Shown: positions 14,059 to 33,685, counted from the stretch's first letter. The stretch: 56,861 nt of DNA from Patescibacteria group bacterium UBA3466 (GCA_002378195.1 DFRJ01000002.1:270816-327676), one strand, 5' to 3'. A program made the numbers and translations. The notes: generated by a model from the sequence alone, not told the origin.

Positions 14059-17000
14059 CTAGAATACCGGGACGGCTACATAATTAATGTTGGTTACATA
14101 ATCACCAGCCGGCTGATCTACACCGACTCGCATACGATAAATGATTGTTTCTGTATCGTTGGTAGGCACCGAGCTAAACATGATTTCACTTAATGATGTA
14201 CTGGCGGCAGCATAAGAATCAGTTGGTGAAAAACGACTGGAAGAGTTCTCTAGGGTTGCGTCGGTGGTGTGGTAGCCGAAGCAACTAGTTGTCATAAGTG
14301 GACACCCAGCAATCCAACTGACAGGCGCGGCATTTGTGCCTGAGATTGGATCAATTGTATTGCCGGATGAATCGGTTGGCTGCTGGTCTATATACTTGTA
14401 GACTGAATACCCTTCTGTCGCATTAGTGTTTACATTAATTTCTTGCGCCACTTCAACATCTGTATTAAACGGCAAAGATCCGAAATCAATAGTTGTCGCC
14501 GTTGAGGTAGCGTCAGTTGTTACACCAGCAACTGAAGTCTCTGCATCGACTCCGTTTACGGTAAATACTAACGCCGTACTCTCACCAGCCAAACTTGGAT
14601 CTGACGAGCTGGCTGCGATTACTTCGTCATTAGCCAGATCGTAGAGACGGAAATAATAAACCTGACCAAACTTTCTCGGCACATTTGTATACTGCAAGGT
14701 GAATTCGTATTCTTTATCTTCATTACCCAAATGATCTATGCCAGTGAGATACAAGTCACTCTCTTTATGTGAGCCGCAACCAGCTCCGACTCCTCCCACG
14801 CATGATTCAGAGCCAGCCAGTAACGCCGTGGTGATGGGATCATTATCAGTATCGACACCATCGTAGTAACACCACACTGAATTCGCTAAACAGCTTGATG
14901 TAGAAACCACGTCCTGAACATCTGAAAAATCGGGACTCTCTGCAAATTGGACTTTGAATGAGGCGTCCGTCTGCGGTAGATTCTTAATTTCGTCTAGAGT
15001 TACTCGTAGCTTCACCGCATTACCCTTCTCTACGTTAGTTGGCGCAACCTCAAAACCAGCCAGTGGTGATAAAGGCGTCTCGTTTGTTTCGTCGTCGTAC
15101 CAGCGCCAGCCGTCGACCACTGGTGTATAGCCATCAGTCCTAAGCTCTGGGTAGAAGAAGTAACCTTCAAGCAGGGAGTCGTCAGATCTAATCATCCTAA
15201 AGCAGTAGGTAGTTCTCTGACTGGCTCCATTGTGCTCAATGATCCAGTCGTACTCAATATCTTCACCTTCAAATACTGCAAATTCATTTGTTGCGGCTGG
15301 ACCACTTTCCACATACCTACCAGCTCTGTTAGATACAGATAAGAGCAAATCGCCCCCCGTTGGTGGATTACCCGATAATGAATCGCCATCTGTTACCCCG
15401 GCAGCATTAAATCCTCGCCATATTTCACCGCTAGCTGGCGCGCCAACATCTGACCAAACAGTAACTGCGGTACAGGTTGTAACTAGGGGCGCGTACTGCA
15501 GCTTCACTTCGAGATAGTCAGCTGGCAATGTTGCATTTGACACACGGGCTGACATCCTTAGTCGTACCGTATCTCCATCAATGAGAGGTTCATCAGTCGC
15601 AGTTATTGACGTTAATTCACCAAGATCGACTGCGCCGGCTGGCCAAGGATCGGTTGGGGTCAAAGCATCATTATCAACATAGAATCTGTAATAATTCTGA
15701 CGCACAGCAAGATCAGCAGCTGGCCATTGGACTACTTCTGTTCTGTATATGACAGAATTTCCGGTATCGCTCCGCCACAGTTCATATGATGAGGTTGAGA
15801 CTATTTCAAATCCTGCTAAGACTCTGGGAAATTGATTACCAACGGAATCAAGGGCTGTATTGGCGAATATCGAAGCGTTATCTGTGTCGTTAATTGGAGT
15901 TGCAATTGGAAGCGTAATAGTTAGTGGTTCAGCTCCCCCAGTTGGTGAACTACCATTGCTTCTTTGCACAAACATCTCTCCAGTGCCGGTTTGTAGATTC
16001 TCAATCACCCAAGCAACTGAGGTGTGTGTCACTCCAGTTGTTGTGGCGCTGGAAACTAATTGATATGAAACTGCACCGATGCTAGACAGCCACACCTCAT
16101 GACCGAAGTTCGCCATTGAAATATCTCCATCATAACGTTTCTGAGTATGTAAAAAGGTTCTAGCTAGACTATTAACCGCCGTTATACTTTCGACTTGAGG
16201 AGTACCAACATCTGTATACTCGTGCTCTGATCTCTGCACTCTCCAGTTAAGACCGGTAAACTCGATTACGGCATAACTAACAGAACCGGTATTGGCGCCT
16301 GTTGCTCCGCGTTGGAGGACCGGCTCATCAGTACTAGCTGACCAAGCAGCAGTCGATTGATGAGCGTAACCTTCATTTCTAGTACCACCAGTATGGAGCT
16401 GGCCAGTAATAAACACCGCGACATCTGCATCGTCTGAGATGCCAGCTACGGCTGTTCCGGTTGCTATAGTGTCGGTTGTTCCGTAAGAGACTACTCCTTG
16501 ATCACGCACCACCATTTCATTGTCTCCGCCGACTGGTCCGATATATTCTACGATTTCCCACGAAACAAAAGTGTTGCTGACCGAGTCTGTGTCGCGAGAT
16601 ATTGTAAAGCTAGTTTCAATATTTTCCGGATCTAAAATATAGGCGGCGTAATCATCAGTGTTTTGATTACCAATACTGGCCGCATCACGACCTGAGCCTG
16701 TGTGATGCGAATTTACAATGCGAACGAACGCACTAGTAGAGGCAGAGGGAGCCGTATAGTCTACCCCAGCAGTTAGGGTGAGACCGGTCCCAGACACCAA
16801 ATTTGAGCCGCGCTGCACCCGAAAATCTCTTTTTGCTTCTATTACGACTTCCGCGTATTGCTGATAACTAGGCAATGGACTTCCATTGGCTGTAACCCGG
16901 AAACAATACTCAGATTCATAAGGTGTATCGATAGTTGACTGGATGGAATATTCAAGATCAACATATTGATTCTCCGTTAAAGTGGTTGAGGCGGAGTAAG

Positions 17001-20000
17001 AATCGGTTTCTACGATACCTCCATTAGGAGACAAAAACGAACTATTCTCGTCACTCACTCCTCCATTCGCCACAGCAATATCGGTGGTATCATTTCCATC
17101 AGTTAAATTGCCAGAATTATACATATCCCAATCAATCCCAACGCCAACCTCTGACCAAGTCACTATCGCTGCACAAGTTGACACCTTCTCACCGTATTCC
17201 AAGCCATAACTAGCTTCAGACGAAGATGTAGCTCCTTCATTTGAGAGACCGATCCTGAGTCTAATTGGCGAGCTCACACCATGATCCTCCAACACAGTAT
17301 CCTCTGCCCCACCCGTAGCTGAGCTGGCTAATGTTTCACTTCCGTCATCGTTGCGCCAATGATAATGAGACTGAGTAACTAACGCGCTAGCCAGTGTAGA
17401 AGAACCGGTAATGTCGACGACTGAAGATGGTGAAACCGAACCAGCAGCACTCACCACCACATCATCTGATGCAATAGCGATCGTGACATCAATTGTTTCT
17501 CCGTTTGATCCTGACTCACCAACATCCATAACTACATACGCGCACATGGTAGAGGTGGTACTAATAGACAGCACATCATTAAAGGTAGTTGAACCGTTAG
17601 CAGAACTAAAGGAAGCTGCGGTAGAACCAAACTGTGACTCACCACCACCATACGTCTCACTATTACAGTCGTATGGAGCTGACGTATCCAAATCATAAAA
17701 CAGCCTAATATCTGAGACATCAACTGAGGCGTCAATCGTGCCGGTCTCAGTGATAGTGATTCCAGTAACATTTCTGGTGGAGGCGTTTTCTGTAATGACA
17801 AAGGAGCCGCCGATATAAAAATCATCAGTGGGAATATCAACTGAGCCAGCCTGCGAACCTAGCGACGTAACGGTCACGTCTGCTTCAATAGTAGCCTCTG
17901 GATAGGCTGAGTAGCTAGGAAGTGGGGACCCAGCATCAGACAGTCTGAAACAGTAAGTGTTACCTTCCGTTGCAGTTGTTGAAGCAACAATTGAGTACTC
18001 GACTTCTGTCCAATTCGTAACCCCGAATGTTAAGGACCCGAGGGTGGAATTACTATCACGGAGACCACCATTTGGTGTTAAGAATACTGAATTTTCATTT
18101 GAGACACCACCGACTCCAATCCCAATGTCAGTTGTATCATCTCCATCAGCAAAATTAGCAGTAGCCGACAGGTTCCAATCATCGTCCACTGCCCCGACAT
18201 CGGTCCAGCCGGTTGCAAGCTCACAAGTTGAAGCTTTAAGGGCATACTCGAGCCGCAGCGATGTTGCGAGTGAAGAAGTGGAACCTTCATTAGACACACC
18301 AAATCTTAATCTGGCCGGGATCTCCTGCTGAATCGCTAACAAGGACGTATCTTCGACCCCACCAGTTCTTGAAGTTGCACCCGTTTCATTACCGTCATCA
18401 TTTCTCCAATGAAAATGTGTTTGAGTGAGGTCGGAATTAGCAATAGTGGTTGAACCAGTTAAAGACTGTGTTTCGGCAGGCTCTGCTGTGACTGATCCCG
18501 ATACCAAGATATCGGTAGCAGGATTTGACACTTCAATGTCAATCAAGTCACCATCTGAGGCACTTCCAGACACATCAAACAAAACATACAAGCACATTGC
18601 TTGAGTAGTTGTGATATTTACTGTGTCGCTGAAAGTTGACGTGCCGTCAGCACCAGAAAACCCGTCGGTGTCAGTTGCTCCAAATTGAGATTCTGCACCA
18701 CCAAAGGATTCACTCGCACAATCATATGGACTGGTGGTATCAAGATCGTACAAGATCTTCACATTGGACAGATCGTTCGCCGCATCCACTGTGCCGTTTT
18801 CACTAATTGTAATATTTGTAACATTCCTAGATCCAATATTTTCTTCAATGACAAATTGTCCTCCCACATACACGTCTGTTGTGCTGGCACGAACCTCCAC
18901 AGCCTGTGTACCTGAAGCCGACACGATTGTGGCGGGCGTTACATTGGCTACAGTTTCACCTATCACATCATCCAGATCGGCATCAAACCATGAGGCATAA
19001 ATACGGCGGTCTGACACGTAATTCATTGTGACTCCAAATATGTCACCGGATGAAGAGTTGATAGGTCCTTGTGCAGAGCCCCAAGATGTTGCTGCGGCAG
19101 TACTAGTTGCCCAGTAGACATCGGCAGTGCTTGCCGATCCAATTGTAGACCGGCGAGAATATGCCAGGTAAACAGTGTCAGAATTCTCATCTATTGCTAA
19201 CGATAGTGAGGTCAGGCCGCCGGTGTCATTGGTAACAAAATCAGATAAGTTGGACCACAAACCACTAGAGTATTTGGCGATTCTTATGTCGTGGTCGGCA
19301 GAGCTGTAGTTATTAGCATCAGCAATATAAGCCAGATATACATCCCCAGTTAACGGACTTCTGACTGCCGACATCTGGATATCGTAGGTGGTGTTCTCAA
19401 CTGCATTGGAATCAATCACGGACCACGAGGTATCCCAACTTGCTCCATCCCAAATCTTGGAACGAATGTCGTTTGCGGAGATATCTTTATTGATCAGCAT
19501 AATTTCTCCACTATCTAACGGCAGCAGAATTGTATTATCTTCATCCGCGTCCATGAATGTACCATCGCCGACTTCGGACCACGAACCAGATAAATTACAT
19601 GACGCAGAACACGAGACCACGAATCTATCAGCATTATCAGATACAGATATGAAAAGGTCCCCATCAGTACTTTTGGTTAATGAATGATTGGCAGTAGCAG
19701 CACTAATCGACATAGATCCCTGTGACAGCACGGCACTGACTGGTGATGAACCTAGAAGCAAAGTATCACTCGTCGTGTCTAATCTGTTGTACCAAATATC
19801 ATCATTCCCACTATCTAAGGTTGATATATGAATATAGTCACCTGTATCTCCAGGCGTCCATCTATCGTACCAGACATGCACGGCCTCGCAGTCTGTTTGA
19901 CCATCAACTAGCACTTCAGTGCCCCAACTAGCTCCACCGTCTGTGGTTTTACTATATACACACGTTCCGTTAGTACCAGTGCCTCCGGATCCATTTCTGT

Positions 20001-20238
20001 AGAATCGATAGCCAGTCTGATCATCTACAAACACTGTATTGGACTGAGCAATCGTGTGCGAAGGACTAACCGGGCTAGCCGAGCTATCGATAGTCACCGC
20101 GACGGCTTCTGATTCTGGAAACAAAGGAAACTTAAGTAGTGTGTCAAAGTCAGCAAAGATAAAGGTGGCAATAATCAACACTGCAGCAGCAATTCGCATA
20201 CGCAAAAACACACTCTTTTTGTGCCACAAAAAAATCAT
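14059..20238 (-). CDS. 2,059-aa surface protein: Asp-box (BNR) propeller-like N-domain, 2 x module A, 4 x WRNDDG...YCFR modules, WxL-like C-terminal domain ending AVPVF
   Basis: Uninterrupted 6.2-kb ORF with an N-terminal hydrophobic anchor (alternative start M14 at 20199). The Asp-box TTDGGASW lies at 19924-19947. Internal repeats are listed separately. Confidence 0.9.
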   Translation of the reverse strand: MIFLWHKKSVFLRMRIAAAVLIIATFIFADFDTLLKFPLFPESEAVAVTIDSSASPVSPSHTIAQSNTVFVDDQTGYRFYRNGSGGTGTNGTCVYSKTTDGGASWGTEVLVDGQTDCEAVHVWYDRWTPGDTGDYIHISTLDSGNDDIWYNRLDTTSDTLLLGSSPVSAVLSQGSMSISAATANHSLTKSTDGDLFISVSDNADRFVVSCSASCNLSGSWSEVGDGTFMDADEDNTILLPLDSGEIMLINKDISANDIRSKIWDGASWDTSWSVIDSNAVENTTYDIQMSAVRSPLTGDVYLAYIADANNYSSADHDIRIAKYSSGLWSNLSDFVTNDTGGLTSLSLAIDENSDTVYLAYSRRSTIGSASTADVYWATSTAAATSWGSAQGPINSSSGDIFGVTMNYVSDRRIYASWFDADLDDVIGETVANVTPATIVSASGTQAVEVRASTTDVYVGGQFVIEENIGSRNVTNITISENGTVDAANDLSNVKILYDLDTTSPYDCASESFGGAESQFGATDTDGFSGADGTSTFSDTVNITTTQAMCLYVLFDVSGSASDGDLIDIEVSNPATDILVSGSVTAEPAETQSLTGSTTIANSDLTQTHFHWRNDDGNETGATSRTGGVEDTSLLAIQQEIPARLRFGVSNEGSTSSLATSLRLEYALKASTCELATGWTDVGAVDDDWNLSATANFADGDDTTDIGIGVGGVSNENSVFLTPNGGLRDSNSTLGSLTFGVTNWTEVEYSIVASTTATEGNTYCFRLSDAGSPLPSYSAYPEATIEADVTVTSLGSQAGSVDIPTDDFYIGGSFVITENASTRNVTGITITETGTIDASVDVSDIRLFYDLDTSAPYDCNSETYGGGESQFGSTAASFSSANGSTTFNDVLSISTTSTMCAYVVMDVGESGSNGETIDVTIAIASDDVVVSAAGSVSPSSVVDITGSSTLASALVTQSHYHWRNDDGSETLASSATGGAEDTVLEDHGVSSPIRLRIGLSNEGATSSSEASYGLEYGEKVSTCAAIVTWSEVGVGIDWDMYNSGNLTDGNDTTDIAVANGGVSDENSSFLSPNGGIVETDSYSASTTLTENQYVDLEYSIQSTIDTPYESEYCFRVTANGSPLPSYQQYAEVVIEAKRDFRVQRGSNLVSGTGLTLTAGVDYTAPSASTSAFVRIVNSHHTGSGRDAASIGNQNTDDYAAYILDPENIETSFTISRDTDSVSNTFVSWEIVEYIGPVGGDNEMVVRDQGVVSYGTTDTIATGTAVAGISDDADVAVFITGQLHTGGTRNEGYAHQSTAAWSASTDEPVLQRGATGANTGSVSYAVIEFTGLNWRVQRSEHEYTDVGTPQVESITAVNSLARTFLHTQKRYDGDISMANFGHEVWLSSIGAVSYQLVSSATTTGVTHTSVAWVIENLQTGTGEMFVQRSNGSSPTGGAEPLTITLPIATPINDTDNASIFANTALDSVGNQFPRVLAGFEIVSTSSYELWRSDTGNSVIYRTEVVQWPAADLAVRQNYYRFYVDNDALTPTDPWPAGAVDLGELTSITATDEPLIDGDTVRLRMSARVSNATLPADYLEVKLQYAPLVTTCTAVTVWSDVGAPASGEIWRGFNAAGVTDGDSLSGNPPTGGDLLLSVSNRAGRYVESGPAATNEFAVFEGEDIEYDWIIEHNGASQRTTYCFRMIRSDDSLLEGYFFYPELRTDGYTPVVDGWRWYDDETNETPLSPLAGFEVAPTNVEKGNAVKLRVTLDEIKNLPQTDASFKVQFAESPDFSDVQDVVSTSSCLANSVWCYYDGVDTDNDPITTALLAGSESCVGGVGAGCGSHKESDLYLTGIDHLGNEDKEYEFTLQYTNVPRKFGQVYYFRLYDLANDEVIAASSSDPSLAGESTALVFTVNGVDAETSVAGVTTDATSTATTIDFGSLPFNTDVEVAQEINVNTNATEGYSVYKYIDQQPTDSSGNTIDPISGTNAAPVSWIAGCPLMTTSCFGYHTTDATLENSSSRFSPTDSYAAASTSLSEIMFSSVPTNDTETIIYRMRVGVDQPAGDYVTNINYVAVPVF
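14062..14590 (-). other. shared C-terminal domain, type 1 (WxL-like), copy in the 2,059-aa protein
   Basis: LVFTVNGV...TIDFGSLPF...INVNTNATEGYSVYKY...GDYVTNINYVAVPVF-COOH. It is collinear with the tail of the 389-aa protein (FTFTVSGV...EINFGELTD...VETNAQNGFVVTVTA...DDYTATLTYVATPVF-COOH). Confidence 0.6.
14640..15115 (-). repeat. WRNDDG...YCFR-type module, copy 4 of the 2,059-aa protein (divergent)
   Basis: WRWYDDETNETP...AVKLRVTL...FKVQFAES...YYFRLYD. Confidence 0.55.
15140..15695 (-). repeat. WRNDDG...YCFR-type module, copy 3
   Basis: YYRFYVDNDALTP...TVRLRMSARVSN...KLQYAPLVTTCTAVTVWSDVG...IEYDWII...TYCFRMIRSD...YFFYPELRT. Confidence 0.6.
16845..17375 (-). repeat. WRNDDG...YCFR-type module, copy 2
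   Basis: HYHWRNDDGSET...IRLRIGLSNEGATSS...GLEYGEKVSTCAAIVTWSEVG...LEYSIQ...EYCFRVTANGSPLPSYQQYAEVVI. Confidence 0.7.
17380..17880 (-). repeat. module A, copy 2 (~165 aa)
   Basis: FYIGGSFVITENASTRNVTGITITETGTIDASVDVSDIRLFYDLDTSAPYDCNSETYGGGESQFG...TMCAYVVMDV parallels copy 1. Confidence 0.7.
17885..18425 (-). repeat. WRNDDG...YCFR-type module, copy 1
   Basis: HFHWRNDDGNETG...ARLRFGVSNEGSTSS...RLEYALKASTCELATGWTDVG...VEYSIV...TYCFRLSDAGSPLPSYSAYPEATI. Confidence 0.7.
18430..18940 (-). repeat. module A, copy 1 (~165 aa)
   Basis: VYVGGQFVIEENIGSRNVTNITISENGTVDAANDLSNVKILYDLDTTSPYDCASESFGGAESQFG...AMCLYVLFDV. Confidence 0.7.
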
Positions 20239-22345: not shown

Positions 22346-23089
22346 CTAAAAAAAGTAATTAGCCAGGATAATTGAGAAATCCCTGAAGCTCATGCGCCCA
22401 TCACCGTTAAAATCGTATAGAATGTCCTTATTACGCCAGGCGCCCATGAATGCACTTATATCCTTCAAGGATACCTTACCGTCACCATCAAGATCAGTTA
22501 CCAAGTTCACCTCGGCTATCACGCCAATACTGTCCGGGCTGGTATTCTCGTCATAAACATAAAGGCTAACAGACGAATCGGTAGCTTCTGCTACCGCCAC
22601 TTGCGTGCCCTCACCATCACCTGCCAGCAAAACAACATCAGTGGCCGAGAAGACTTCTTGACCGGTTTTCTTAGCAGTAAGGTTGATCGTAGCAATGAGA
22701 TGCTCGCTCAAAAAGCCCCGTCGGTAAGTGCCTCCCCTCAAAATCACTTTGCCTGATTCTATAATAGGCTCTTGCGCCCATATAGTAAGAACTGACTGAC
22801 CTCTGTCTACACCGTCAACAGTAAAAGCTGACTCATCAAACTGAAGAGTGATGTCGACAGCATTAACTGGCACATGTGCATGGGCATATACATCGACTGA
22901 AAATTGTTTGCCTGCTTCAATTACGGTCTCAGAAGTCTCAAGCCTAACAAAAGAGACTTCAGTGGTGGTAATAACTGACGCCCCCAAAAGAGCTACGAAA
23001 GAAGCAATAGCGGGAAACATGTAACGCACAGTTCCTCTCCTTGATCTTTTGATGCTTAGAGATTTTATAAACTGTGAAATATACTTCAT
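22346..23089 (-). CDS. cohesin-like plus dockerin adaptor protein
   Basis: 247 aa with an N-terminal anchor. The cohesin-like core FSVDVYAHAHVPVNAVDITLQFDESAFTV...LTIWAQEP... is paralogous to the 583-aa and 363-aa ORFs. The C-terminus has two Ca-loop/helix repeats, DLDGDGKVSLKDISAFMGAW and DFNGDGRMSFRDFSIILANY. Confidence 0.8.
   Translation of the reverse strand: MKYISQFIKSLSIKRSRRGTVRYMFPAIASFVALLGASVITTTEVSFVRLETSETVIEAGKQFSVDVYAHAHVPVNAVDITLQFDESAFTVDGVDRGQSVLTIWAQEPIIESGKVILRGGTYRRGFLSEHLIATINLTAKKTGQEVFSATDVVLLAGDGEGTQVAVAEATDSSVSLYVYDENTSPDSIGVIAEVNLVTDLDGDGKVSLKDISAFMGAWRNKDILYDFNGDGRMSFRDFSIILANYFF
22349..22500 (-). other. dockerin-like module (two EF-hand-like D-x-[DN]-x-[DN]-G-x(5)-D repeats)
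   Basis: DLDGDGKVSLKD and DFNGDGRMSFRD, each followed by an amphipathic helix. Confidence 0.7.
22564..22957 (-). other. cohesin-like module (247-aa protein)
   Basis: It shares the pattern ...F.V.V......VNA.D..I.F......V......S....W...P......I.F.GG...G with modules at 25040-25442 and 26218-26563. Confidence 0.6.
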
Positions 23090-23093
23090 GGTT

Positions 23094-23780
23094 TTATGAA
23101 GACGTTAGTCTGGCCCTGATGTCAGAAGCTTGAATATTACCAACCAGCATACTCTCCTTCACCTGACTGACCTCCTGCAAAATAGTAACAATTTCTTCCG
23201 AATCCGAAGCTTTACCTTCAAGCAATCTATCAATAATGTCCTCTTGTAGGTCTACCAATGTAGAAAAATGTTCTGCTTGAGTTTTCTCGGCTGCTAAAAG
23301 AGCAGTCCAATCAGAAAGCGCATACTGACCGGTATTACTTTCGCCTGTCATTTCGCTCAGCAAACCGACATAGACTTCGTAGAGCGCTAATTCTCGATCA
23401 AAAACATAAATACTTAATGACCTTTGATCAGCGAAGTAACTACCGCAGCCAATAAAGAGCGTATCTAGTTCCAGCAATTCTTCCCTGCTTAAATTATCGT
23501 CAAGCGAGTCTAACAATCCTTCAAACCGATTCCTGTTAGTGACGGAACAATCTTTCACGATGTCGGACACCTCATCTATCGGAGTATTGCGAGAAATTGA
23601 ATTAGCGATACTAAGTAAAAGTTCTGACTGATCATCAGTCCGGTCAGACATTTGCTGAACCATCTCCTCATGCTTGCCATCAGTTTGGTGGTTTGCAGAA
23701 AAATATACCCCAGTCAACGCAACCACAATCAGCAATACAACCTTGCAACTAAATACTGAATTCCTCTTTGATTTATCCAT
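23094..23780 (-). CDS. hypothetical membrane-anchored, helical protein
   Basis: 228-aa ORF with an N-terminal TM (VVLLIVVALTGVYF). Gaps to the flanking genes are 3-4 nt. I recognised no family. Confidence 0.65.
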   Translation of the reverse strand: MDKSKRNSVFSCKVVLLIVVALTGVYFSANHQTDGKHEEMVQQMSDRTDDQSELLLSIANSISRNTPIDEVSDIVKDCSVTNRNRFEGLLDSLDDNLSREELLELDTLFIGCGSYFADQRSLSIYVFDRELALYEVYVGLLSEMTGESNTGQYALSDWTALLAAEKTQAEHFSTLVDLQEDIIDRLLEGKASDSEEIVTILQEVSQVKESMLVGNIQASDIRARLTSS

Positions 23781-23783
23781 ATC

Positions 23784-25535
23784 TTAATTATTATTCTTTC
23801 GTGATAACTCTGTAATGTCGGTGATCTCTTTCTCTACTTTCTTTTGTGAGGACTGTAGTGCCTTATCCAAGACCTCAACCATTTCAGATTCTGCCTTGGT
23901 AAGCTTCTTAGTCTTCCTTGATGCCTGCATAGCAGACTCTTGGTCACGCAAGGTGGTCTGCAGGTCTGCAAATTCACGTCGCAAAATTTCCATAGCTTCT
24001 GTTGACTCAACTCGCACCCGCTTCCTAAACTTTCTTGAATACAAAACGAGGTACCAAAAGGCAATTATGGCAACTCCGAGCAAAACAATCAGTGGGATAA
24101 TTACTGAAAGAATGCTCACAATGAATGACCCGATTCTAATAAAGCCAGTTTCTTGAACAGCAATTCTAGCAATATCTGACATCTCACTCTGAGCCCCATT
24201 TTGATCTGTGGCAATTGCGTATATTTCATAAACTCCGTTAACAAACGTCCCTTCTGGAATAAAGACAAATTGCCCATTCTGATCACTGTTTACAGTGTAT
24301 GTAGTCGCCTCAGATCCCAACCTGGTCAAGGTGATCTCAACTGCTGAGTTTGGTTTTGTATTACCCTTAATTACCGGGATAACTTGCGGATTAATTTCGG
24401 TAGGAACATCGGTGAAAACTGGTTTATCAAAGGATACGACGGTAAAGGTGTATGTACCCACGATACTGTTACCAGCCTGGTCAAATGCTTCTATGATGAC
24501 GCTCTTAAAACCAGGTTCCAATCCCTCAATCACTACCGTACTTGAACCAGTTTCGTCAATGTACTCAAACGGATCCTGTCCATCGATGACCACCTTGTAA
24601 CGATTTACATCAGTAGTTTCATCCTCTGTAACAACCCTCAGCACCTGTGTCGGGTTGGAAAGATCTGCGTTCTCATCGTGCGAGATGTGAATGCTAGTAG
24701 GAGCTTTTGTGTCTACCCTGAGTGGATAATGATTGACTCTGCCCCAGCCTTCAGCATTACGGAACTGTAGATGTAAATAGGTAATACCATCTTCCAAGTC
24801 AGATAAGGTGATTTCAGATATTGGCGTATCGTAGACCTTGGTAGGAACTGATGTTGGATTATCGTTCAGGAGAGTTCTTACACTTGTCACGTCTGGCGGT
24901 AAGCTCCATGACAACACGGCCTCAGTTTTATTACTCCACTCATCTATCGGGTGAGTATCAGACTTAATGATTGGTCGACTAGGAGTGTTTGCAGCTGCAA
25001 TGTACTCGATCACTTCCGGTTCTGGTGCCACGGCTGTTGCTTGAATAGTATAATTTGCACTATTCATTGAAGTCAGAATATTTGTACCTCTACCATCATT
25101 AGCCAGAACGGATCCGGTCTGAAAACTCACTCTTGAAGACCCTGAACCCTTAGTTCTAAAGGTAACTGTCATGATGCGTCCAGCTGATCCGGTATAACCT
25201 GACGGTAGTCCTCCACTAAAATTTATCGTTCCGGCTGAATTCGAAAAAGTTGGTTCAGCCACCCAAAGGTTGAAGATTGATCCAGATCGATTAACCGACA
25301 CTACTGATAATTCATTAGGATTAAATGAAATGACCCCATCTGCGGCGTTGACTGGCTGCCCTCCAGTATTTACATTCACACTAACTGTAAAAGTGGTATT
25401 CGAAGTATAGACACCTGTACTAGGTGATATCGACAATGAAGCAGCTTGCGCGTAGGTTACACATAAAAACCATAAACCTAGCAAAGCACCTACCTTAGTG
25501 ACAAATTTAAATGAGGATAAAGCTTGATTAAACAT
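23784..25535 (-). CDS. membrane-anchored cohesin-like scaffold protein with Ig/FN3-like domains and a cytoplasmic coiled-coil tail
   Basis: 583 aa. The signal peptide ends ...TYAQA. The cohesin-like core is ASLSISPSTGVYTSNTTFTVSVNVNTGGQPVNAADGVISFNPNELSVVSV..SIFNLWVAEPTF..GTINFSGGLPSGYTG. Several beta-sandwich domains follow, then the TM IVSILSVIIPLIVLLGVAIIAFWYLVL and a charged helical tail. Confidence 0.8.
   Translation of the reverse strand: MFNQALSSFKFVTKVGALLGLWFLCVTYAQAASLSISPSTGVYTSNTTFTVSVNVNTGGQPVNAADGVISFNPNELSVVSVNRSGSIFNLWVAEPTFSNSAGTINFSGGLPSGYTGSAGRIMTVTFRTKGSGSSRVSFQTGSVLANDGRGTNILTSMNSANYTIQATAVAPEPEVIEYIAAANTPSRPIIKSDTHPIDEWSNKTEAVLSWSLPPDVTSVRTLLNDNPTSVPTKVYDTPISEITLSDLEDGITYLHLQFRNAEGWGRVNHYPLRVDTKAPTSIHISHDENADLSNPTQVLRVVTEDETTDVNRYKVVIDGQDPFEYIDETGSSTVVIEGLEPGFKSVIIEAFDQAGNSIVGTYTFTVVSFDKPVFTDVPTEINPQVIPVIKGNTKPNSAVEITLTRLGSEATTYTVNSDQNGQFVFIPEGTFVNGVYEIYAIATDQNGAQSEMSDIARIAVQETGFIRIGSFIVSILSVIIPLIVLLGVAIIAFWYLVLYSRKFRKRVRVESTEAMEILRREFADLQTTLRDQESAMQASRKTKKLTKAESEMVEVLDKALQSSQKKVEKEITDITELSRKNNN
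25040..25442 (-). other. cohesin-like module (583-aa protein)
   Basis: See the CDS evidence above. Assignment is by motif recall only. Confidence 0.6.
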
Positions 25536-25546
25536 AATAATTAAAA

Positions 25547-26638
25547 CTATTCGTCCAACTCCTCGTCAGGAGCAATTTCTTTAGCCTGACTCTCAAATTC
25601 TTCATCATGATATTCGTCTACATTTGTCACCGCTTCTTGTCGACGCTTTCTTATATACATCACAATACCCACCAAAACCGAGACAGCGACCAATGCTGTG
25701 AATACAATCAACATTAAATTAATCAGCTGCGAGTTAGACATTGAGCGTAGTGAATCGTCAGGCACGATTGTCGCAACGTACTCATTGCCAGCCTTATCAA
25801 GCGCACGAACTCTAATAATACTATTTAGGCTTTGGTCTTCTAGCACATATGGACTCACAGCATCAACCCAAGGAGCATCTGCTCTTCCCCACTCAAATGA
25901 GGCAAATTGAGTATTCGGTTCTTCCATTACCTGGTAGCGGTCAATCCCAGTTTGCTTATCTACGGTATTGAAGACTATGTAGTATCGGTCAGTAAACTTT
26001 AGACCGCTACCTTTCTCAAGAATAATACTAAATTCTTCTGGTGGAATATCGTCAGCGTCAATCTCATCCTGCCAGTCATTTGCAATGTTAGGACTTACTT
26101 CATCGATCAGATTAATGCTTGCGGGAAGTAATCTAAGGCCAGCCTTTGTACCTCTACCATCATTCAAATAAGCAACGCTATCTTCAGTAAACTCGATAGT
26201 TGCCTCATTACTGTCATTAGTTCGCCCGATCACAAATCCTGGTGATCGAAACACAAGTTCAGCCAGCACATTGGTTAGACGAGGGTCACCAGCAACTCTT
26301 CCGCAGTATCCATTTGGTATACCGCCAGCAAACGTAATTGTTCTATTTTCCTTGTTGATTACTGGTCTTTCCACCCAAATACTAAAAATGGAACCGCCGA
26401 TAGAGACGTCAACCGGATCAATATTGTCTGGATACGATATCACTGTATCAACTGCGTTGACGCACTCCCCAGTCTCCTCGTCTACATCCAGGCGCACGGA
26501 CAGGGTCACGGCATCGCCGCGATACAGATTGCTAAAGGGCGGGTCAATATAAAGAGAGGCCGCTTGAGATAAATGCGGCAACAATAGGCCCACTAAAACC
26601 ATAAATAGAAAAACTCTCCCTTTTAACATAAGTTCCAT
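25547..26638 (-). CDS. membrane-anchored cohesin-like protein
   Basis: 363 aa with a signal peptide. The cohesin-like core is ASLYIDPPFSNLYRGDAVTLSVRLDVDEETGECVNAVDTVISYPDNIDPVDV..SIFSIWVERPVI..RTITFAGGIPNGYCG. An Ig-like domain follows, then the TM LMLIVFTALVAVSVLVGIVMYI and an acidic tail. Confidence 0.8.
   Translation of the reverse strand: MELMLKGRVFLFMVLVGLLLPHLSQAASLYIDPPFSNLYRGDAVTLSVRLDVDEETGECVNAVDTVISYPDNIDPVDVSIGGSIFSIWVERPVINKENRTITFAGGIPNGYCGRVAGDPRLTNVLAELVFRSPGFVIGRTNDSNEATIEFTEDSVAYLNDGRGTKAGLRLLPASINLIDEVSPNIANDWQDEIDADDIPPEEFSIILEKGSGLKFTDRYYIVFNTVDKQTGIDRYQVMEEPNTQFASFEWGRADAPWVDAVSPYVLEDQSLNSIIRVRALDKAGNEYVATIVPDDSLRSMSNSQLINLMLIVFTALVAVSVLVGIVMYIRKRRQEAVTNVDEYHDEEFESQAKEIAPDEELDE
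26218..26563 (-). other. cohesin-like module (363-aa protein)
   Basis: See the CDS evidence above. Confidence 0.6.
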
Positions 26639-26647
26639 TGTGTAGTT

Positions 26648-26656
26648 ATTATAGCA
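26648..26656 (-). promoter_or_regulatory. extended -10 element TGCTATAAT, 9 nt upstream of the 363-aa ATG
   Basis: Minus strand reads ggttgTTGCTATAATaactacacaATG. It lies downstream of the terminator at 26730-26766. It implies a very short or absent leader, or use of M4 at 26629. Confidence 0.4.
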
Positions 26657-26729
26657 ACAACCAATTCCTATTATTATCTCCTGTACACATAGTTAATGTT
26701 TGAATGTATGTTGTGGAATGTACAGATAC

Positions 26730-26766
26730 AAAAAACCCCTCTCGTGGTGGGAGATAGGGTTTTTTG
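26730..26766 (-). terminator. intrinsic terminator after the 389-aa gene
   Basis: Minus strand: AAAAAACCCTATCTCCCaccacGAGAGGGGTTTTTTG, an interrupted GC-rich stem followed by T6. It lies about 35 nt after the stop at 26799. Confidence 0.75.
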
Positions 26767-26798
26767 TCTTTTAACTCCAAGCTTAGAGCCAATATTCG

Positions 26799-27968
26799 TT
26801 AGAACACTGGTGTTGCTACATATGTCAGCGTAGCGGTGTAGTCATCAGCAGCTTCTTGCAAGGCACTAATTTCTACCTTGTAACCAACACGGGTTGTACC
26901 CTCACCGGTTACAGTGCCGTCAGTAGGACCGTTATGACGGAATACTTCTACAGGTGTAGTTGAAGCAGACACAAATCTATCTCCAGCACCTCCTGCATCA
27001 AATGGGTCAGTTAAACCTGAACCAAGCGTTGGATCATCTGAGGTAAGACCCCAGTGTCCGTAGGTATCGTCATCTCCTAATGAAGGACTCGGCGCTTCCC
27101 AAGCTACAGCTGTAGTATCGAAGTTACCATTTCGGAAACCGTCGATATCAGCTCCACTTGTAGAAACCAGTTGACTATCTGCTGTAACTGTTACCACAAA
27201 ACCATTTTGCGCGTTGGTTTCAACTTGCAGGTCTTGTGCAGTAGTACTAGCGTTTCCATCTGTTAGTTCACCGAAGTTGATCTCAGTAGCTGACGTTGAA
27301 CCATCTGTAATGTCCGCAACGTTTACAGTTTGTCCGCCTGCAACACCAGATACCGTAAAGGTAAATCGAGTATCAACAGAAGCGGTCACCTGTACGTTAG
27401 GAACGATGGCAACTCTAGTTTCGCCAGTGTCTGACGAACCAGCAGTTACAGGAATTTCGTATGAACCAGCAACTGGGTTAGTAATCTGAGCATCCGCATC
27501 TCCAGTGTCACCACCAAATGTTGCGTTTGTACCGATCAGAATGGTAGTAGTACCATTTACTGGAATTGAAGCTCCGTCACCAGAACAAAATGTAATGGTT
27601 AGAACTCCAGATGTTGATGAGGCACTAACCTCGTCAACTCCAGAACAGTCGGCAGCTACAGTAAGATTACTAGAATCATCAAGTACATCGATATCAGTTT
27701 CATCTACTGAACCAAAAACGAAAGGACCATCAGAGAAATCAATTGTAATTGTTTCACCGTTTGCAACTCCTGAAGGTGTTACAAAAGTAATTTCGTGGTT
27801 CGAAGCCACGCTAGGTGCAGAATCTGATAAGGTGTCACTTAATGTGAGGACATTTGCAGCTTCTACGAATTGTAGAGACGGAAGTCCGATTGACCAAAAA
27901 AGAATGGTCATGGTTACCGTCGCTGCGATAGCTTGGAGTATCGAGAACGAATTTGACGTTCTGTGCAT
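26799..27968 (-). CDS. 389-aa secreted protein with WxL-like C-terminal domain ending ATPVF; monocistronic, candidate abundant surface subunit
   Basis: The signal peptide ends ...SLQFVEA/ANV. The protein is T/S/G/D-rich and beta-type, contains HWGL, and ends DDYTATLTYVATPVF. It has its own promoter-like motif and leader upstream, and terminators on both sides. Confidence 0.85.
   Translation of the reverse strand: MHRTSNSFSILQAIAATVTMTILFWSIGLPSLQFVEAANVLTLSDTLSDSAPSVASNHEITFVTPSGVANGETITIDFSDGPFVFGSVDETDIDVLDDSSNLTVAADCSGVDEVSASSTSGVLTITFCSGDGASIPVNGTTTILIGTNATFGGDTGDADAQITNPVAGSYEIPVTAGSSDTGETRVAIVPNVQVTASVDTRFTFTVSGVAGGQTVNVADITDGSTSATEINFGELTDGNASTTAQDLQVETNAQNGFVVTVTADSQLVSTSGADIDGFRNGNFDTTAVAWEAPSPSLGDDDTYGHWGLTSDDPTLGSGLTDPFDAGGAGDRFVSASTTPVEVFRHNGPTDGTVTGEGTTRVGYKVEISALQEAADDYTATLTYVATPVF
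26802..27400 (-). other. shared C-terminal domain, type 1 (WxL-like), copy in the 389-aa protein
   Basis: It is collinear with 14062-14590. The features ...NFGEL..., ...NAQNGF.V.V.A... and Y-x-A-x-L-T-Y-V-A-x-P resemble the WxL-domain layout (FG motif, GW/GF strand, terminal Y...L.W.L..P). Confidence 0.5.
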
Positions 27969-28167
27969 ACTCTACGTTGTTTAGTTAAACCTACAGCCTA
28001 TAGTCCAAAATATGGCTATAAATAAGACTAGCTTATACCATGGTGCGGTCTCCACTCCGCTCCACAAAAGGCACTGCGGGTATACCTACAAAGTAACACT
28101 CGGCTGAAGTGCTCACGCAAAAAGCGTGCAGTAATTCTAATTGATTACCTCCTCTACAGGTACATTC

Positions 28168-28212
28168 ATATTGTACGATGTCCATCAAACTCATTTGTAC
28201 AGTTATGCACAA
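28168..28212 (-). promoter_or_regulatory. bipartite promoter-like motif TTGTGCATAACT-N24-GTACAATAT upstream of the 389-aa gene
   Basis: TTGTGCATAACT is at 28201-28212 and GTACAATAT (contains TACAAT) at 28168-28176, both read on the minus strand. The same two blocks recur at 32397-32440 with N23 spacing. Confidence 0.55.
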
Positions 28213-28218
28213 ATTTAT

Positions 28219-28247
28219 GCAAAAATCGTGGCCTGTGCCACGATTTA
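28219..28247 (-). terminator. intrinsic terminator after the 367-aa gene
   Basis: Minus strand: TAAATCGTGGC-acag-GCCACGATTTTTGC. The stem begins within the TAA stop (28245-28247) and is followed by a T-run. Confidence 0.8.
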
Positions 28248-29348
28248 CCCTGTCCAATTGAATAGTAAGATTGAAAAGTCTTCCAGTCCGACGTTTCCAT
28301 TTTGATTAATGTCAGCTGGTGGATCAGAATCACCTCCTGTGGTTTGCCACCAGAAAATCAGAATCGAGAAGTCAATCAAGTTAATAAATCCGTCTCGGTT
28401 GAGGTCCGTCGGCAAGGTGGCCTGGCCGTCAACCCCCACAAACAATTGCAATGAGGTACTGAAACTACTTTCAGTTGTTAATGGTGGATTTCCCACGATG
28501 GAGCGCGCTCTGATGATGTGATCAGAGATGGATAGTCTAGAGGTGTCAAAATCAATACTCCAGTCCCCATCGGCATTGGAGTTTGTACTCTCTACTATCT
28601 GACTTTCATTAAAGTGTATTTCTACTTCGGATTCAGGCACACTTTGTCCGGAGATAGTCACAATATCTCCCGGGTCCACATTCTGATTTGGCACTGAAAT
28701 GGTAGGTGGTATCACAACGCCATTTAGATTGGTTATGGCTCCCTGAGTAACATCAAACGTGTTATTAAGAGTAATTGAGCGTACACCTGAGGAGTCGGTG
28801 GTCCAGATTCCCAAGGTAGCAGTTCCTGGCGTAGCGTCTGCCGCAAATTCAAAATCACCATTTCCGTCAGAACGAACTGAACCGACGCTTTCAGTATCTA
28901 TTAAAAAGTTGATTGTCCGAGACGGATAGCCTTTTCCGATGATGTTAACTATAGTGTCTCCCAGCTCGTCATCCTGGCCCCCTCCACCACCTGAACCACC
29001 TCCAGAGGTACCTCCACCTCCAGATCCCGCTGGTTCAATTTTACAAATTGAAGAACAAAAGTCTCCGTCATCATTATTTCCGTCGTCACATTCTTCGTCA
29101 TAAATTGTCTGCAGAATACCGTCACCGCAGTAAGGTCCGAAGTTACACGACGGGGTACACTGTCGGCCGGCAATGGTCTGGCTATATACCCCCGTCTCAC
29201 CAGGTACGTCACAGTCCTCACCGCCATCAACAATAGCATTACCACAAATACTGATAGTCAGAGTGGTAGTAGCAGTACTAAACTGCGCTCCAGCAACAGC
29301 TGGAGTACAAACTAGCAGCATTAATGTCCATAGTAGTAATGATCTCAT
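28245..29348 (-). CDS. secreted Cys-rich-repeat protein with Gly linker, two Ig-like domains and C-terminal dockerin
   Basis: 367 aa with a signal peptide. CGNAIVDGGEDCDVPGE...CTPSC and CGDGILQTIYDEECDDGNNDDGDFCSSIC resemble the Myxococcus-type cysteine-rich repeat. The linker is GSGGGGTSGGGSGGGGG. The C-terminus carries DLNRDGFINLIDFSILIFWW and DINQNGNVGLEDFSILLFNW. Confidence 0.8.
   Translation of the reverse strand: MRSLLLWTLMLLVCTPAVAGAQFSTATTTLTISICGNAIVDGGEDCDVPGETGVYSQTIAGRQCTPSCNFGPYCGDGILQTIYDEECDDGNNDDGDFCSSICKIEPAGSGGGGTSGGGSGGGGGQDDELGDTIVNIIGKGYPSRTINFLIDTESVGSVRSDGNGDFEFAADATPGTATLGIWTTDSSGVRSITLNNTFDVTQGAITNLNGVVIPPTISVPNQNVDPGDIVTISGQSVPESEVEIHFNESQIVESTNSNADGDWSIDFDTSRLSISDHIIRARSIVGNPPLTTESSFSTSLQLFVGVDGQATLPTDLNRDGFINLIDFSILIFWWQTTGGDSDPPADINQNGNVGLEDFSILLFNWTG
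28248..28412 (-). other. dockerin-like module (367-aa protein)
   Basis: DLNRDGFINLID and DINQNGNVGLED Ca-binding loops, each followed by an FSIL helix. Confidence 0.7.
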
Positions 29349-29349
29349 A

Positions 29350-30303
29350 CTAACTTCGGCGTCGTCTAGCGGTAGATCGACGACTCTTGAAGAGATAGAG
29401 AACCGAAATAATTACAGCGAAGATTGGCAGTAAGACTGAAATCTTATGCGGCGCAGACAGACCTGTAAAGCCAAAGCCAGCTGCTTGTAAAGTTCCTTCC
29501 TCTAGGATGTTTATACTAAGATCACCCTCTTGCTTGATCTCGTCATCATTGTAAATAACGTACCTAGCTATGTAAGTACCAGCTGGAAGTCTAGTCGGTA
29601 TCTCTGCTGTCACGGACTCCGTAGCGTAAGGCTCGATCTTTGGTATCTTTCCAATGTTCTTTGTCTCTTCAAGCATCACTCGACCAGTTCGATCGAAAAT
29701 TCTAAATTCTACTTTTGATGGTGAGATGTCTACGTTACCAGTGTTCTCGAGTAGCATCTCAAAATTGATTTTTCCTGGGAAGAACAACCAGGCTTTTTTT
29801 GTTCCCTCGTTCAAATCACCGGCTGAAACCTTACGAACTCTAAAATCTTTAATCTCTTTATCTATCACAAGGAGATCAATGTCGACTCGAGCGCCAAGAG
29901 AAATGCTTACCGCGCCGGATGTTACCTGACCATCATCTGGGACCATTCTGATTCTAATTGCTCCTGTGTATTCCTTAAAGTCTGCGTCGCCTGGCACCAC
30001 CACCCGCACAGTCATTGGCACTTTTTGGGTACCTTGCGGCATTCTAATATCATCACCCTCTACTATCTCAATCCACTCTTCTATTTCCGGTGCATCAATT
30101 GATATCTGAGCCTTTTGCGAAGTACTGGTGTCCCCTCGCACGAGCAAGATCTGTTGTTCATAGGTAGAGTTTCTTGTCAGACTGGTGTTTCTCACGTAAG
30201 GCGGAGTAATCCCAAAACCAGCTTCAACCACCTCAAAACCGACGTTAAATAACAACACCGGTATCATAGAAAAAACCAAAAACTTTCGTAGAAACGCCTT
30301 CAT
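29350..30303 (-). CDS. CscA/DUF916-like two-beta-sandwich surface protein with C-terminal TM anchor and Arg-rich tail
   Basis: 317 aa with a signal peptide. It carries EEWIEIVEGDDIRMPQGTQKVPMTVRVVVPGDADFKEYTGAIRIRM and LENTGNVDISPSKVEFRIFD...LPAGTYIARYVIY, then the TM ISVLLPIFAVIISVLYLF and KSRRSTARRRRS. There is a 1-nt gap to the 367-aa gene. Confidence 0.8.
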   Translation of the reverse strand: MKAFLRKFLVFSMIPVLLFNVGFEVVEAGFGITPPYVRNTSLTRNSTYEQQILLVRGDTSTSQKAQISIDAPEIEEWIEIVEGDDIRMPQGTQKVPMTVRVVVPGDADFKEYTGAIRIRMVPDDGQVTSGAVSISLGARVDIDLLVIDKEIKDFRVRKVSAGDLNEGTKKAWLFFPGKINFEMLLENTGNVDISPSKVEFRIFDRTGRVMLEETKNIGKIPKIEPYATESVTAEIPTRLPAGTYIARYVIYNDDEIKQEGDLSINILEEGTLQAAGFGFTGLSAPHKISVLLPIFAVIISVLYLFKSRRSTARRRRS

Positions 30304-30335: not shown

Positions 30336-30379
30336 CAAAAAGCAACAGCCACTGTTGTATAACAGTGGCTGTTTTTTGC
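30336..30379 (-). terminator. intrinsic terminator after the 674-aa gene
   Basis: A perfect 13-bp stem, AACAGCCACTGTT-atac-AACAGTGGCTGTT, followed on the minus strand by GCTTTTTGG. An A-run on the other side gives it a bidirectional shape. Confidence 0.9.
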
Positions 30380-33683: not shown

Positions 33684-33685
33684 AA

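Follow-up and report, generated by a model that had tools for sequence, protein, structure and literature searches.

Cohesin-dockerin pairs outside cellulosomes are already established, and in non-cellulolytic organisms their cargo is mostly unknown. What job might these modules do on the surface of an ultra-small bacterium? The question is raised by a stretch of DNA from Patescibacteria group bacterium UBA3466 (GCA_002378195.1 DFRJ01000002.1:270816-327676; 56,861 nucleotides (nt), hereafter the window), in which positions 22,346 to 29,348 encode cohesin-like and dockerin modules. An initial annotation, made from the sequence alone, had read this region as a scaffold of two membrane anchors, one adaptor and one Cys-rich cargo protein. 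Every gene in this region is encoded on the minus strand, and the open reading frames (ORFs) exist as it described. The genomic context points to a specific job, and we give about an even chance to the following reading: the cohesin-dockerin set would be built into a Pam-type pilus operon and would fasten the pilus base to the membrane by means of a donor-only terminator.

The source organism is an ultra-small marine member of Patescibacteria (candidate phyla radiation, CPR), similar to Kaiserbacteria/Nomurabacteria. Close homologues are assigned at NCBI to Candidatus Kaiserbacteria, Nomurabacteria or Parcubacteria, and matches to the window sequence were found in marine and biofilm metagenomes. 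The genome around the window comprises 902,885 bp and is 99% complete.

Cohesin and dockerin modules confined to one island

The genome contains four cohesin-like modules, in proteins of 583, 363, 247 and 512 amino acids (aa), and three dockerins, in proteins of 247, 367 and 654 aa, all of them in one island. A six-frame search of the whole genome returned only three Pfam cohesin and three Pfam dockerin matches, and each cohesin protein has a single cohesin module. The 512-aa cohesin and 654-aa dockerin proteins are located 2.4-6.5 kb past the high end of the window. The network is larger than first proposed, with at least three anchors, one adaptor and two dockerin-terminated proteins; the count of further dockerin ORFs that the annotation had suggested yielded one, the 654-aa gene of the same island, and none elsewhere in the genome.

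The N-terminal modules of the three cohesin proteins in the window are paralogous, as had been noticed from the sequence (BLASTP of 583 against 363 aa, E=3e-19 with 36% identity over 162 aa; 583 against 247 aa, E=2e-9; 363 against 247 aa, E=5e-5). Scanned in isolation, the modules of the 583-, 512- and 247-aa proteins score 31.9, 29.2 and 26.1 bits with Pfam Cohesin (PF00963), all above its gathering threshold of 24.1 bits. The six-frame search gave 31.1 (583 aa), 24.5 (247 aa) and 28.4 bits (512 aa), and hmmscan with full-length proteins gave 23.9 bits for the 247-aa protein and missed the cohesin of the 583-aa protein. The expected cohesin assignment was therefore recovered for the 583- and 247-aa proteins and not for the 363-aa protein. 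Judged by its homology to the 583-aa module (E=3e-19), the latter is a divergent cohesin-like module. It scores 178.5 bits with our module profile A1, which includes its own sequence, and of 16 proteins of the 363-like family taken from across the phylum, just two match PF00963, a match carried by 68 of the 120 listed orthologues of the 583-aa protein. When a profile of the modules was compared with the PDB, only cohesins appeared at the top, with the NagJ cohesin (2jh2, E=0.018) followed by scaffoldin cohesins.

Both the 583- and the 363-aa protein have a signal peptide, a C-terminal transmembrane (TM) helix (residues 462-501 and 301-331, respectively) and a cytoplasmic tail, in agreement with the topology originally proposed. 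The membrane-proximal part of the tail is basic in both, and the tail of the 583-aa protein is a charged helical segment of about 80 aa. The 512-aa protein similarly consists of a cohesin, a TM helix and a charged helical tail. This topology is common, as an exhaustive profile search for the cohesin-like module yielded 9,812 cluster representatives (E<=1e-3), and 113 of the top 150 possess a TM helix in their C-terminal half. Many representatives are proteins of 600-900 aa with two cohesin-like modules and a mid-protein TM helix, resembling a fusion of the 363-like and 583-like proteins. In several loci two cohesin genes overlap by tens of bases (for example L004 5053-7679), and the two-module proteins may be real fusions, cases of translational coupling or merged gene calls.

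All three dockerins contain two canonical Ca loops, with D-x-[DN]-x-[DN]-G-x5-D occurring twice and each loop followed by a helix, and the dockerin profile matches dockerin 2y3n_B over its full length (E=2.8e-7). With Pfam Dockerin_1 (PF00404, threshold 22.9 bits) the 654-aa protein scores best of the three (32.9 bits), and the 367-aa protein reaches 24.8 bits in hmmscan and 27.4 bits in the six-frame search. The assignment proposed for the 247-aa protein depends on the search, since its dockerin scores 17.9 bits in hmmscan, 21.2 bits in the six-frame search and 24.6 bits with neighbouring pieces, and EF-hand models score similarly. In both the 247-aa and the 367-aa family the dockerin is the most conserved region, as would be expected for a constrained binding interface.

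The 247-aa protein indeed has the cohesin-plus-dockerin (Coh+Doc) architecture of an adaptor. Its AlphaFold2 (AF2) model, built with 65 sequences, shows a beta-sandwich at residues 46-179 (predicted local distance difference test, pLDDT, 71-91) and two dockerin helices (pLDDT 82-88). Foldseek, run as a fold test for this cohesin protein only, found 2vo8 as the best PDB match (E=2e-9, TM-score 0.84 on the target). Almost all of its top 50 matches were cohesins, with 2vo8, NagJ, CaCohA2 and A. fulgidus 2xdh among the best and 3ul4, 4dh2 and 2bm3 also present. A single-sequence PDB search with the 247-aa protein returned EF-hand proteins only, and profiles were needed. The family counts 721 homologues, of which the 120 listed are about 224-261 aa long and 58-71% identical. 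The N-terminus, with a basic n-region and a hydrophobic segment at residues 24-42, may be either a signal peptide that is cleaved or an anchor that is retained; it is of intermediate conservation. Both modules of this protein are the most divergent of the set: the cohesin is 27% identical to that of the 583-aa protein, and the dockerin shares 36-38% identity with the other two and differs from them at loop position 11, where it has K/R and they have I/E/T. This would fit a separate specificity. Two distant genomes (L015, L018) repeat the order giant-Doc, Coh+Doc and cohesin protein with TM helix (Coh-TM), which supports the adaptor idea.

None of the three dockerins is found on an enzyme, and the claim that no carbohydrate-active enzyme carries a dockerin holds for the whole genome. 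In some other Patescibacteria, 8 to more than 20 dockerin proteins are encoded in tandem arrays (L030 G132:C27:3500-18000; L031 G170:C3:499000-518000; L032 G166:C4:19000-38500). They include subtilase S8, GH5/apiosidase-like, beta-helix, CBM_4_9 and PA14 proteins, together with a canonical Coh+Doc scaffoldin whose cohesin scores 69 bits, indicating that an enzyme-display use of the pair also exists in the phylum.

Pilus operon context and the donor-strand motif

Pam pili are assembled by donor-strand exchange: each pilin has a linker strand between its N-terminal and C-terminal domains, and this strand completes the open C-terminal domain of the adjacent pilin (Troman et al. 2026, bioRxiv 10.64898/2026.03.03.709456; PMC13278184). 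According to the same work, PamC and PamD are membrane-tethered chaperones. Termination and tethering of the fibre are predicted there for PamR, which is RbmA-like and has both a C-terminal TM helix and an additional strand at its N-terminus; cohesins and dockerins receive no mention in that paper. By sequence, the island appears to encode a distant Pam-type, usher-less donor-strand-exchange pilus, with giant adhesins, pilins of 389 and 380 aa and PamC/D-like tethered chaperones.

The 2059-aa giant protein aligns to positions 3-148 of the 148 positions of the Pam pilin C-terminal domain model (NCBIfam NF058581, CPR_Pam_pilin_C; curated cut-off 55 bits) with 26.8 bits (33.7 bits in the six-frame search), and the 389- and 380-aa proteins score 18.8 and 15.9 bits, respectively. 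The 389-aa and giant proteins share their C-terminal domain, and a hidden Markov model (HMM) of the three domains (389, 380 and 2059 aa) finds pilin-like genes at the same operon slot in other lineages. The 389-aa protein is probably the major pilin. In a marine metatranscriptome (X12), only four contigs (100% identical) matched anywhere in 13 kb of the island, and all of them lie inside the 389-aa gene (window 26857-27928), which fits a major pilin, although contig data cannot show that other genes are silent. About 160 kb from the island, a 2406-aa frame terminates in a third C-terminal domain of the Pam-pilin type (27.2 bits; G000:C2:108004-108447, plus strand) and may encode a further giant tip adhesin.

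The chaperone HMM (317, 341, 359 and 552 aa) matches chaperones of type-like Saccharimonadia Pam operons (E=3e-23 to 2e-44). Weak matches to WxLIP_PGBD (PF06030), the WxL-interacting protein domain of Firmicutes Csc/WxL clusters, occur in the 552-aa (window 11437-13095, E=2e-4) and 359-aa proteins (L001 8626-9705, E=2e-3) and hint at a distant kinship of the two surface systems. The 317-aa protein (29350-30303) gave no WxLIP_PGBD match.

In the direction of transcription, the genes follow one another as 317, 367, 389, 363, 583, 228 and 247 aa. A gap of 1 nt separates the 317- and 367-aa genes, and gaps of 3-11 nt separate the genes from 363 to 247 aa; the 389-aa gene is flanked by wider gaps of 276 and 160 nt. 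A simple terminator scan detected none flanking this gene. The gene order is identical in the complete Candidatus Nomurabacteria genome CP060229.1. A second set lies outside the window, just upstream of the giant gene (locus L001, G000:C2:326000-342000), and encodes in succession a paralogue of the 389-aa protein (380 aa), a chaperone-like protein (359 aa), a protein of 135 aa, the 654-aa dockerin protein, Hsp20 and the 512-aa cohesin protein. The Hsp20/alpha-crystallin gene occupies L001 5683-6165 (G000:C2:331682-332164), between the 654-aa dockerin and 512-aa cohesin genes.

The association extends across the phylum. Among 301 evenly sampled Patescibacteria genomes, 82 contain the cohesin-like module and 104 a Pfam dockerin; 51 possess both, 31 only the cohesin, 53 only the dockerin and 166 neither (odds ratio 5.2, Fisher p=2e-9, uncorrected for phylogeny). 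In 27 of the 51 genomes having both, 96-555 nt separate the end of a dockerin from a cohesin module downstream of it on the same strand, which means that the gene preceding the cohesin gene ends in a dockerin. When gene order was compared in 26 loci, a recurrent arrangement became apparent: a giant protein or pilin with a Pam-type C-terminal domain, a chaperone-like protein, a dockerin-ended protein, a Coh-TM protein of about 300 aa and another of about 500-690 aa. It is seen in at least nine distant lineages (L007, L008, L010, L012, L016, L019, L020, L026 and L029), with one to three Coh-TM genes after the dockerin gene. Pam pilins scoring above the cut-off adjoin such genes in three genomes, namely G043 (84 and 82 bits), G175 (69 and 63 bits) and G211 (72, 67 and 72 bits), the last of which has the same gene order as the genome studied here. 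The module genes are a conserved segment of a Pam-type pilus operon across Patescibacteria, which speaks against a free-standing display scaffold.

The 367-aa protein, in turn, had been regarded as cargo. It does contain the Cys-rich and immunoglobulin (Ig)-like domains that had been recognised, with DUF4215/TIGR02232 repeats at 38-40 bits (DUF4215 38.1), above the cut-off, and an Ig-Ig core modelled at pLDDT 83-97. It is, however, no arbitrary cargo but a member of a dedicated operon family. In this family a signal peptide and an N-terminal strand precede Ig-Ig and a dockerin, with a head present in some members, and the gene is always located between the chaperone gene and the cohesin genes. 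The dockerin-less parts of proteins from this slot match one another with E=1e-15 to 1e-83 over a module of about 180 aa, the Ig-Ig module before the dockerin, and the non-dockerin part of the 367-aa protein has orthologues among the dockerin proteins from other lineages (E=1e-15 to 1e-62), in G267 with the Cys-rich head included (E=2e-62). Over its last 240 aa, the 654-aa protein shares 42% identity with the 367-aa protein (E=2e-51). Minimal family members (264-309 aa) are headless and consist of a signal peptide, an alternating-hydrophobic beta-strand, a Pro/Gly-rich linker, Ig-Ig and a dockerin. Foldseek matched the Ig-Ig core of the 367-aa model with tandem Ig repeats from adhesins and, weakly and at rank 18, with RbmA (4kkq).

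The strand at the N-terminus of these proteins connects them with the pilins. A position-specific scoring matrix (PSSM) built from the N-terminal strands of dockerin proteins has its top match at the linker between the N- and C-terminal domains (positions 184-193) in five major pilins of different lineages, among them VQVTASVDT of the 389-aa protein. For three of the five linkers (VTVTATVDP, VNVTATVDP and VTISATVSQ) the match was significant against shuffles (p<0.005). A reciprocal PSSM of the pilin linkers found its best match at the mature N-terminus in the dockerin proteins from four loci, namely L007, L008 and L019 (p<=0.005) and L020 (p=0.075), and controls were low. From this, it can be inferred that dockerin proteins of relatives carry a copy of the strand that a pilin would donate, without an acceptor domain, which gives them the look of a donor-only terminator.

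Type-like Pam operons, with pilins of 140-186 bits and flanked by ATP synthase genes as described (PMC13278184), contain no cohesin or dockerin within them. The slot after the chaperone is taken there by one protein of about 320 aa that combines a signal peptide and Ig-like domains with a TM helix at the C-terminus and which by position and architecture would be PamR. Homology of PamR to the 363-like anchors was rejected (hhalign probability 0.2% for the 363 family against the PamR-position proteins). The Ig-Ig core reached 25 bits and 54% probability with the PamR-position proteins and a control Ig domain 23.5 bits, so this likeness may be no more than generic.

A proposed anchor for the pilus base and its alternatives

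According to the model we favour, cohesin modules would be presented at the tips of Ig stalks held in the cytoplasmic membrane by one TM helix (363-, 583- and 512-aa proteins). The secreted 367- and 654-aa proteins end in a dockerin, predicted to bind Ca, behind the Ig-Ig spacer, and these dockerins would plug non-covalently into the putative sockets. The dockerin protein would act as the proximal, donor-only subunit, with its N-terminal beta-strand filling the acceptor groove of the last pilin and thus terminating the fibre; the dockerin would then fix the fibre base to the membrane. Such an arrangement would be a two-piece analogue of the predicted tether PamR, to which the 247-aa Coh+Doc protein might add one tier or a second specificity. 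Mutual binding, the choice of partners and strand donation are steps which the model presumes; support for binding comes from the genomic linkage, and for strand donation from the motif matches. Module identity, topology, operon context, the linkage across the phylum and the strand motif of relatives, by contrast, are shown. Most likely, the cohesin-dockerin pair serves as plug and socket that fastens either the pilus base or an Ig-stalked surface protein to the membrane.

Several observations weigh against a pilus anchor. The pilin C-terminal domains of this genome score 15.9-33.7 bits, below the NF058581 cut-off of 55, and its system is therefore not a certified Pam system; among 26 genomes with bona fide Pam pilins, only eight contain the cohesin-like module, and the co-occurrence statistics disregard phylogeny. 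The pilin-linker PSSM detects neither the 367-aa nor the 654-aa protein. The former and other Cys-rich-headed forms keep only an alternating-hydrophobic strand (TTLTISI directly before CGN), and in the latter the likeness to the 389-aa pilin is confined to the signal peptide and about 45 mature residues (E=3e-8). AF2 modelled the dockerin and Cys-rich head of the 367-aa protein with low confidence, and the isolated 363-aa module gives no Pfam Cohesin match even at E<=1. Finally, the Hsp20 gene interrupts the second set, and the pilin gene of the window sits between the dockerin and cohesin genes.

Some of these observations would suit an autonomous hierarchical display scaffold, in which anchors, the 247-aa adaptor and the 367-aa cargo are mechanically independent of the pilus and share only location and regulation with it, and the Cys-rich/Ig protein serves as a surface ligand or adhesin. 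The mismatch between the 367-aa strand and the pilin linker fits this explanation, as do the conserved Coh+Doc architecture, the gene order of L015 and L018, the presence of enzymes on dockerins in other CPR genomes, and the strong conservation of the Cys-rich head (column entropy 0.64), which would be expected of a functional ligand-binding head. However, the head cannot be the conserved function of the family when its minimal members are headless, the N-terminal strand of these members equals the pilin donor strand, and the dockerin gene is found between the chaperone and cohesin genes in at least nine lineages. We consider a display scaffold unlikely, though worth keeping in mind.

A different explanation would be that cohesin-like and dockerin-like folds are present without any mutual binding, the dockerin being a structural Ca-binding EF-hand pair and the sandwich binding a host surface, glycan or cell wall. 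Scores near the thresholds (such as 17.9 bits for the 247-aa dockerin, which also matches EF-hand models), the 363-aa module's lack of a Pfam match, and the 31 genomes with a module and no Pfam dockerin and 53 with the reverse are all compatible with it. It nevertheless appears improbable, as conservation in both dockerin proteins is highest in the dockerin, and the closest structures are those of cohesins that were crystallised together with their dockerins. Moreover, in 27 of the 51 genomes with both modules a cohesin gene is directly preceded by a dockerin, far more often than expected by chance. As for enzyme display of the cellulosome or amylosome type, the pair is best known from cellulosomes, and dockerin-bearing S8 peptidase, GH5/apiosidase-like, beta-helix and CBM proteins do occur in other CPR genomes. 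With only three dockerins in the genome, none on an enzyme, this explanation has hardly any probability left, and for the cellulosome-like form the whole-genome dockerin count and the single cohesin per protein rule it out in this genome.

Extending the pilus-anchor reading from this island to the phylum is more tentative, and we hold it to be somewhat less probable than the reading itself. In much of Patescibacteria, the cohesin-dockerin pair would then be the non-covalent joint between a giant-adhesin-tipped Pam-type pilus and the cytoplasmic membrane, with a donor-only terminator that caps the fibre base and plugs into TM sockets of varied stalk length. In the genome studied here, the 247-aa adaptor, the Cys-rich head and the paralogous 654/512-aa set would add tiered or alternative attachment.

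Neighbouring features and known systems

Coordinates of the features within the window are collected in Table 1. The 228-aa protein gave no family match in the profile scans of the window proteins; its gene keeps its position and length in CP060229.1. A MacB/FtsX-type ATP-binding cassette (ABC) pair (ABC_tran; MacB_PCD+FtsX) adjoins the operon at window 32469-35008, and its position is kept in the same genome. In a scan against shuffled sequences, neither promoters (31 vs 23.8±4.9) nor terminators (12 vs 8.6±2.7) clearly exceeded the counts in the shuffles. The sole strong terminator-like site in the 20-33 kb interval is a hairpin with 13 perfectly paired bp, flanked by T-runs on both strands and located between the 674-aa and 317-aa genes (30344-30373).

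Table 1. Positions and architecture of the cohesin, dockerin and pilus-related proteins encoded in the window
Feature	Position (nt)	Strand	Architecture	Basis or remark
552-aa and 341-aa paralogues of the chaperone-like protein	11437..14053	(-)		members of chaperone HMM
2059-aa giant adhesin	14059..20238	(-)	last 146 aa form a Pam-pilin-type C-terminal domain	NF058581; candidate pilus tip subunit
247-aa Coh+Doc protein	22346..23089	(-)	cohesin, residues 46-179 (nt 22553-22954); linker; dockerin, residues 197-247 (nt 22349-22501)	Pfam, AF2
228-aa protein	23094..23780	(-)	N-terminal TM helix; helical domain	between 583- and 247-aa genes, gaps 3-4 nt
583-aa long anchor	23784..25535	(-)	signal peptide; cohesin (nt 25041-25442); about three Ig-like domains (Big_13); TM (nt 24033-24152)	profiles, TM prediction
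363-aa short anchor	25547..26638	(-)	signal peptide; cohesin-like module (nt 26105-26560); one beta domain; TM (nt 25646-25738); acidic tail	homology to 583-aa protein
389-aa pilin-like protein	26799..27968	(-)	N-terminal domain; linker strand VQVTASVDT (residues 192-200); C-terminal domain ending PVF	NF058581, HMM
367-aa dockerin protein	28245..29348	(-)	signal peptide; strand TTLTISI (nt 29247-29285); Cys-rich DUF4215 head (nt 29034-29246); Gly linker; Ig-Ig (nt 28434-28964); dockerin (nt 28248-28433)	profiles, AF2
317-aa PamC/D-like chaperone candidate	29350..30303	(-)	two beta domains; C-terminal TM helix	ends 1 nt before 367-aa gene starts; HMM

Since non-cellulosomal pairs are established and some of these proteins are already labelled 'Cohesin domain' by the Joint Genome Institute (JGI), the bare presence of the modules is not new. 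In the literature searched, we found no description of cohesin-dockerin in CPR and no link of cohesin-dockerin to pili. With the window comes a lineage in which the set is duplicated and the dockerin protein bears a Cys-rich head, along with a conserved family of Coh+Doc adaptors and evidence of pilin expression. On cells that have no outer membrane, usher or sortase, the job suggested by the context is that of holding pili or Ig-stalked surface proteins. CPR cells are believed to attach to their hosts as episymbionts by means of pili and giant adhesins. Pam tethering has so far been predicted, in a system described only in 2026, and a split, non-covalent tether would, if true, change the Pam model for many lineages. 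The modules are small, soluble and predicted to depend on Ca.

Among known systems, surface-anchored cohesins that receive dockerin proteins are familiar from cellulosomes, where OlpA, OlpC and SdbA of Clostridium thermocellum are anchoring scaffoldins and ScaB of Acetivibrio cellulolyticus and ScaA of Ruminococcus flavefaciens are adaptor scaffoldins. There, too, a Coh+Doc protein can link tiers, and the Ca-binding repeat of the dockerins is duplicated with near-identical helices, which suggests a dual binding mode. In contrast to cellulosome scaffoldins, the anchor is here a single TM helix with a cytoplasmic tail instead of surface-layer homology (SLH) domains or a sortase signal, each anchor has one cohesin, enzymes and carbohydrate-binding modules (CBMs) are absent, and the genes belong to a pilus operon. 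The best structural and sequence matches come from the GH84/GH33 toxin complexes of Clostridium perfringens (2jh2, 2vo8, 2ozn) and from Archaeoglobus fulgidus (2xdh), in which the pair is used outside plant cell-wall degradation. While these pairs join soluble enzymes or have an unknown role, those described here are membrane-anchored and pilus-linked.

In the Pap system, PapH is the terminator and anchor of a chaperone-usher pilus and stays in the usher. The proposed donor-only subunit would likewise be the last one, ending polymerisation and holding the fibre at the cell, but it is not homologous to PapH and carries a dockerin for a cohesin socket. The closest comparison is with the Pam pilus of Candidatus Mycosynbacter amalyticus (PMC13278184), which resembles the window operon in its giant or tip subunit with a pilin C-terminal domain, its two-domain pilins and its PamC/D-like chaperones. 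Both are without an usher, and in both the slot after the chaperone is predicted to encode membrane attachment. The anchors described here are not PamR homologues, and where type-like operons fill that slot with one protein of about 320 aa combining signal peptide, Ig-like domains and TM helix, the window encodes a secreted Ig-Ig-dockerin protein and separate Coh-TM proteins.

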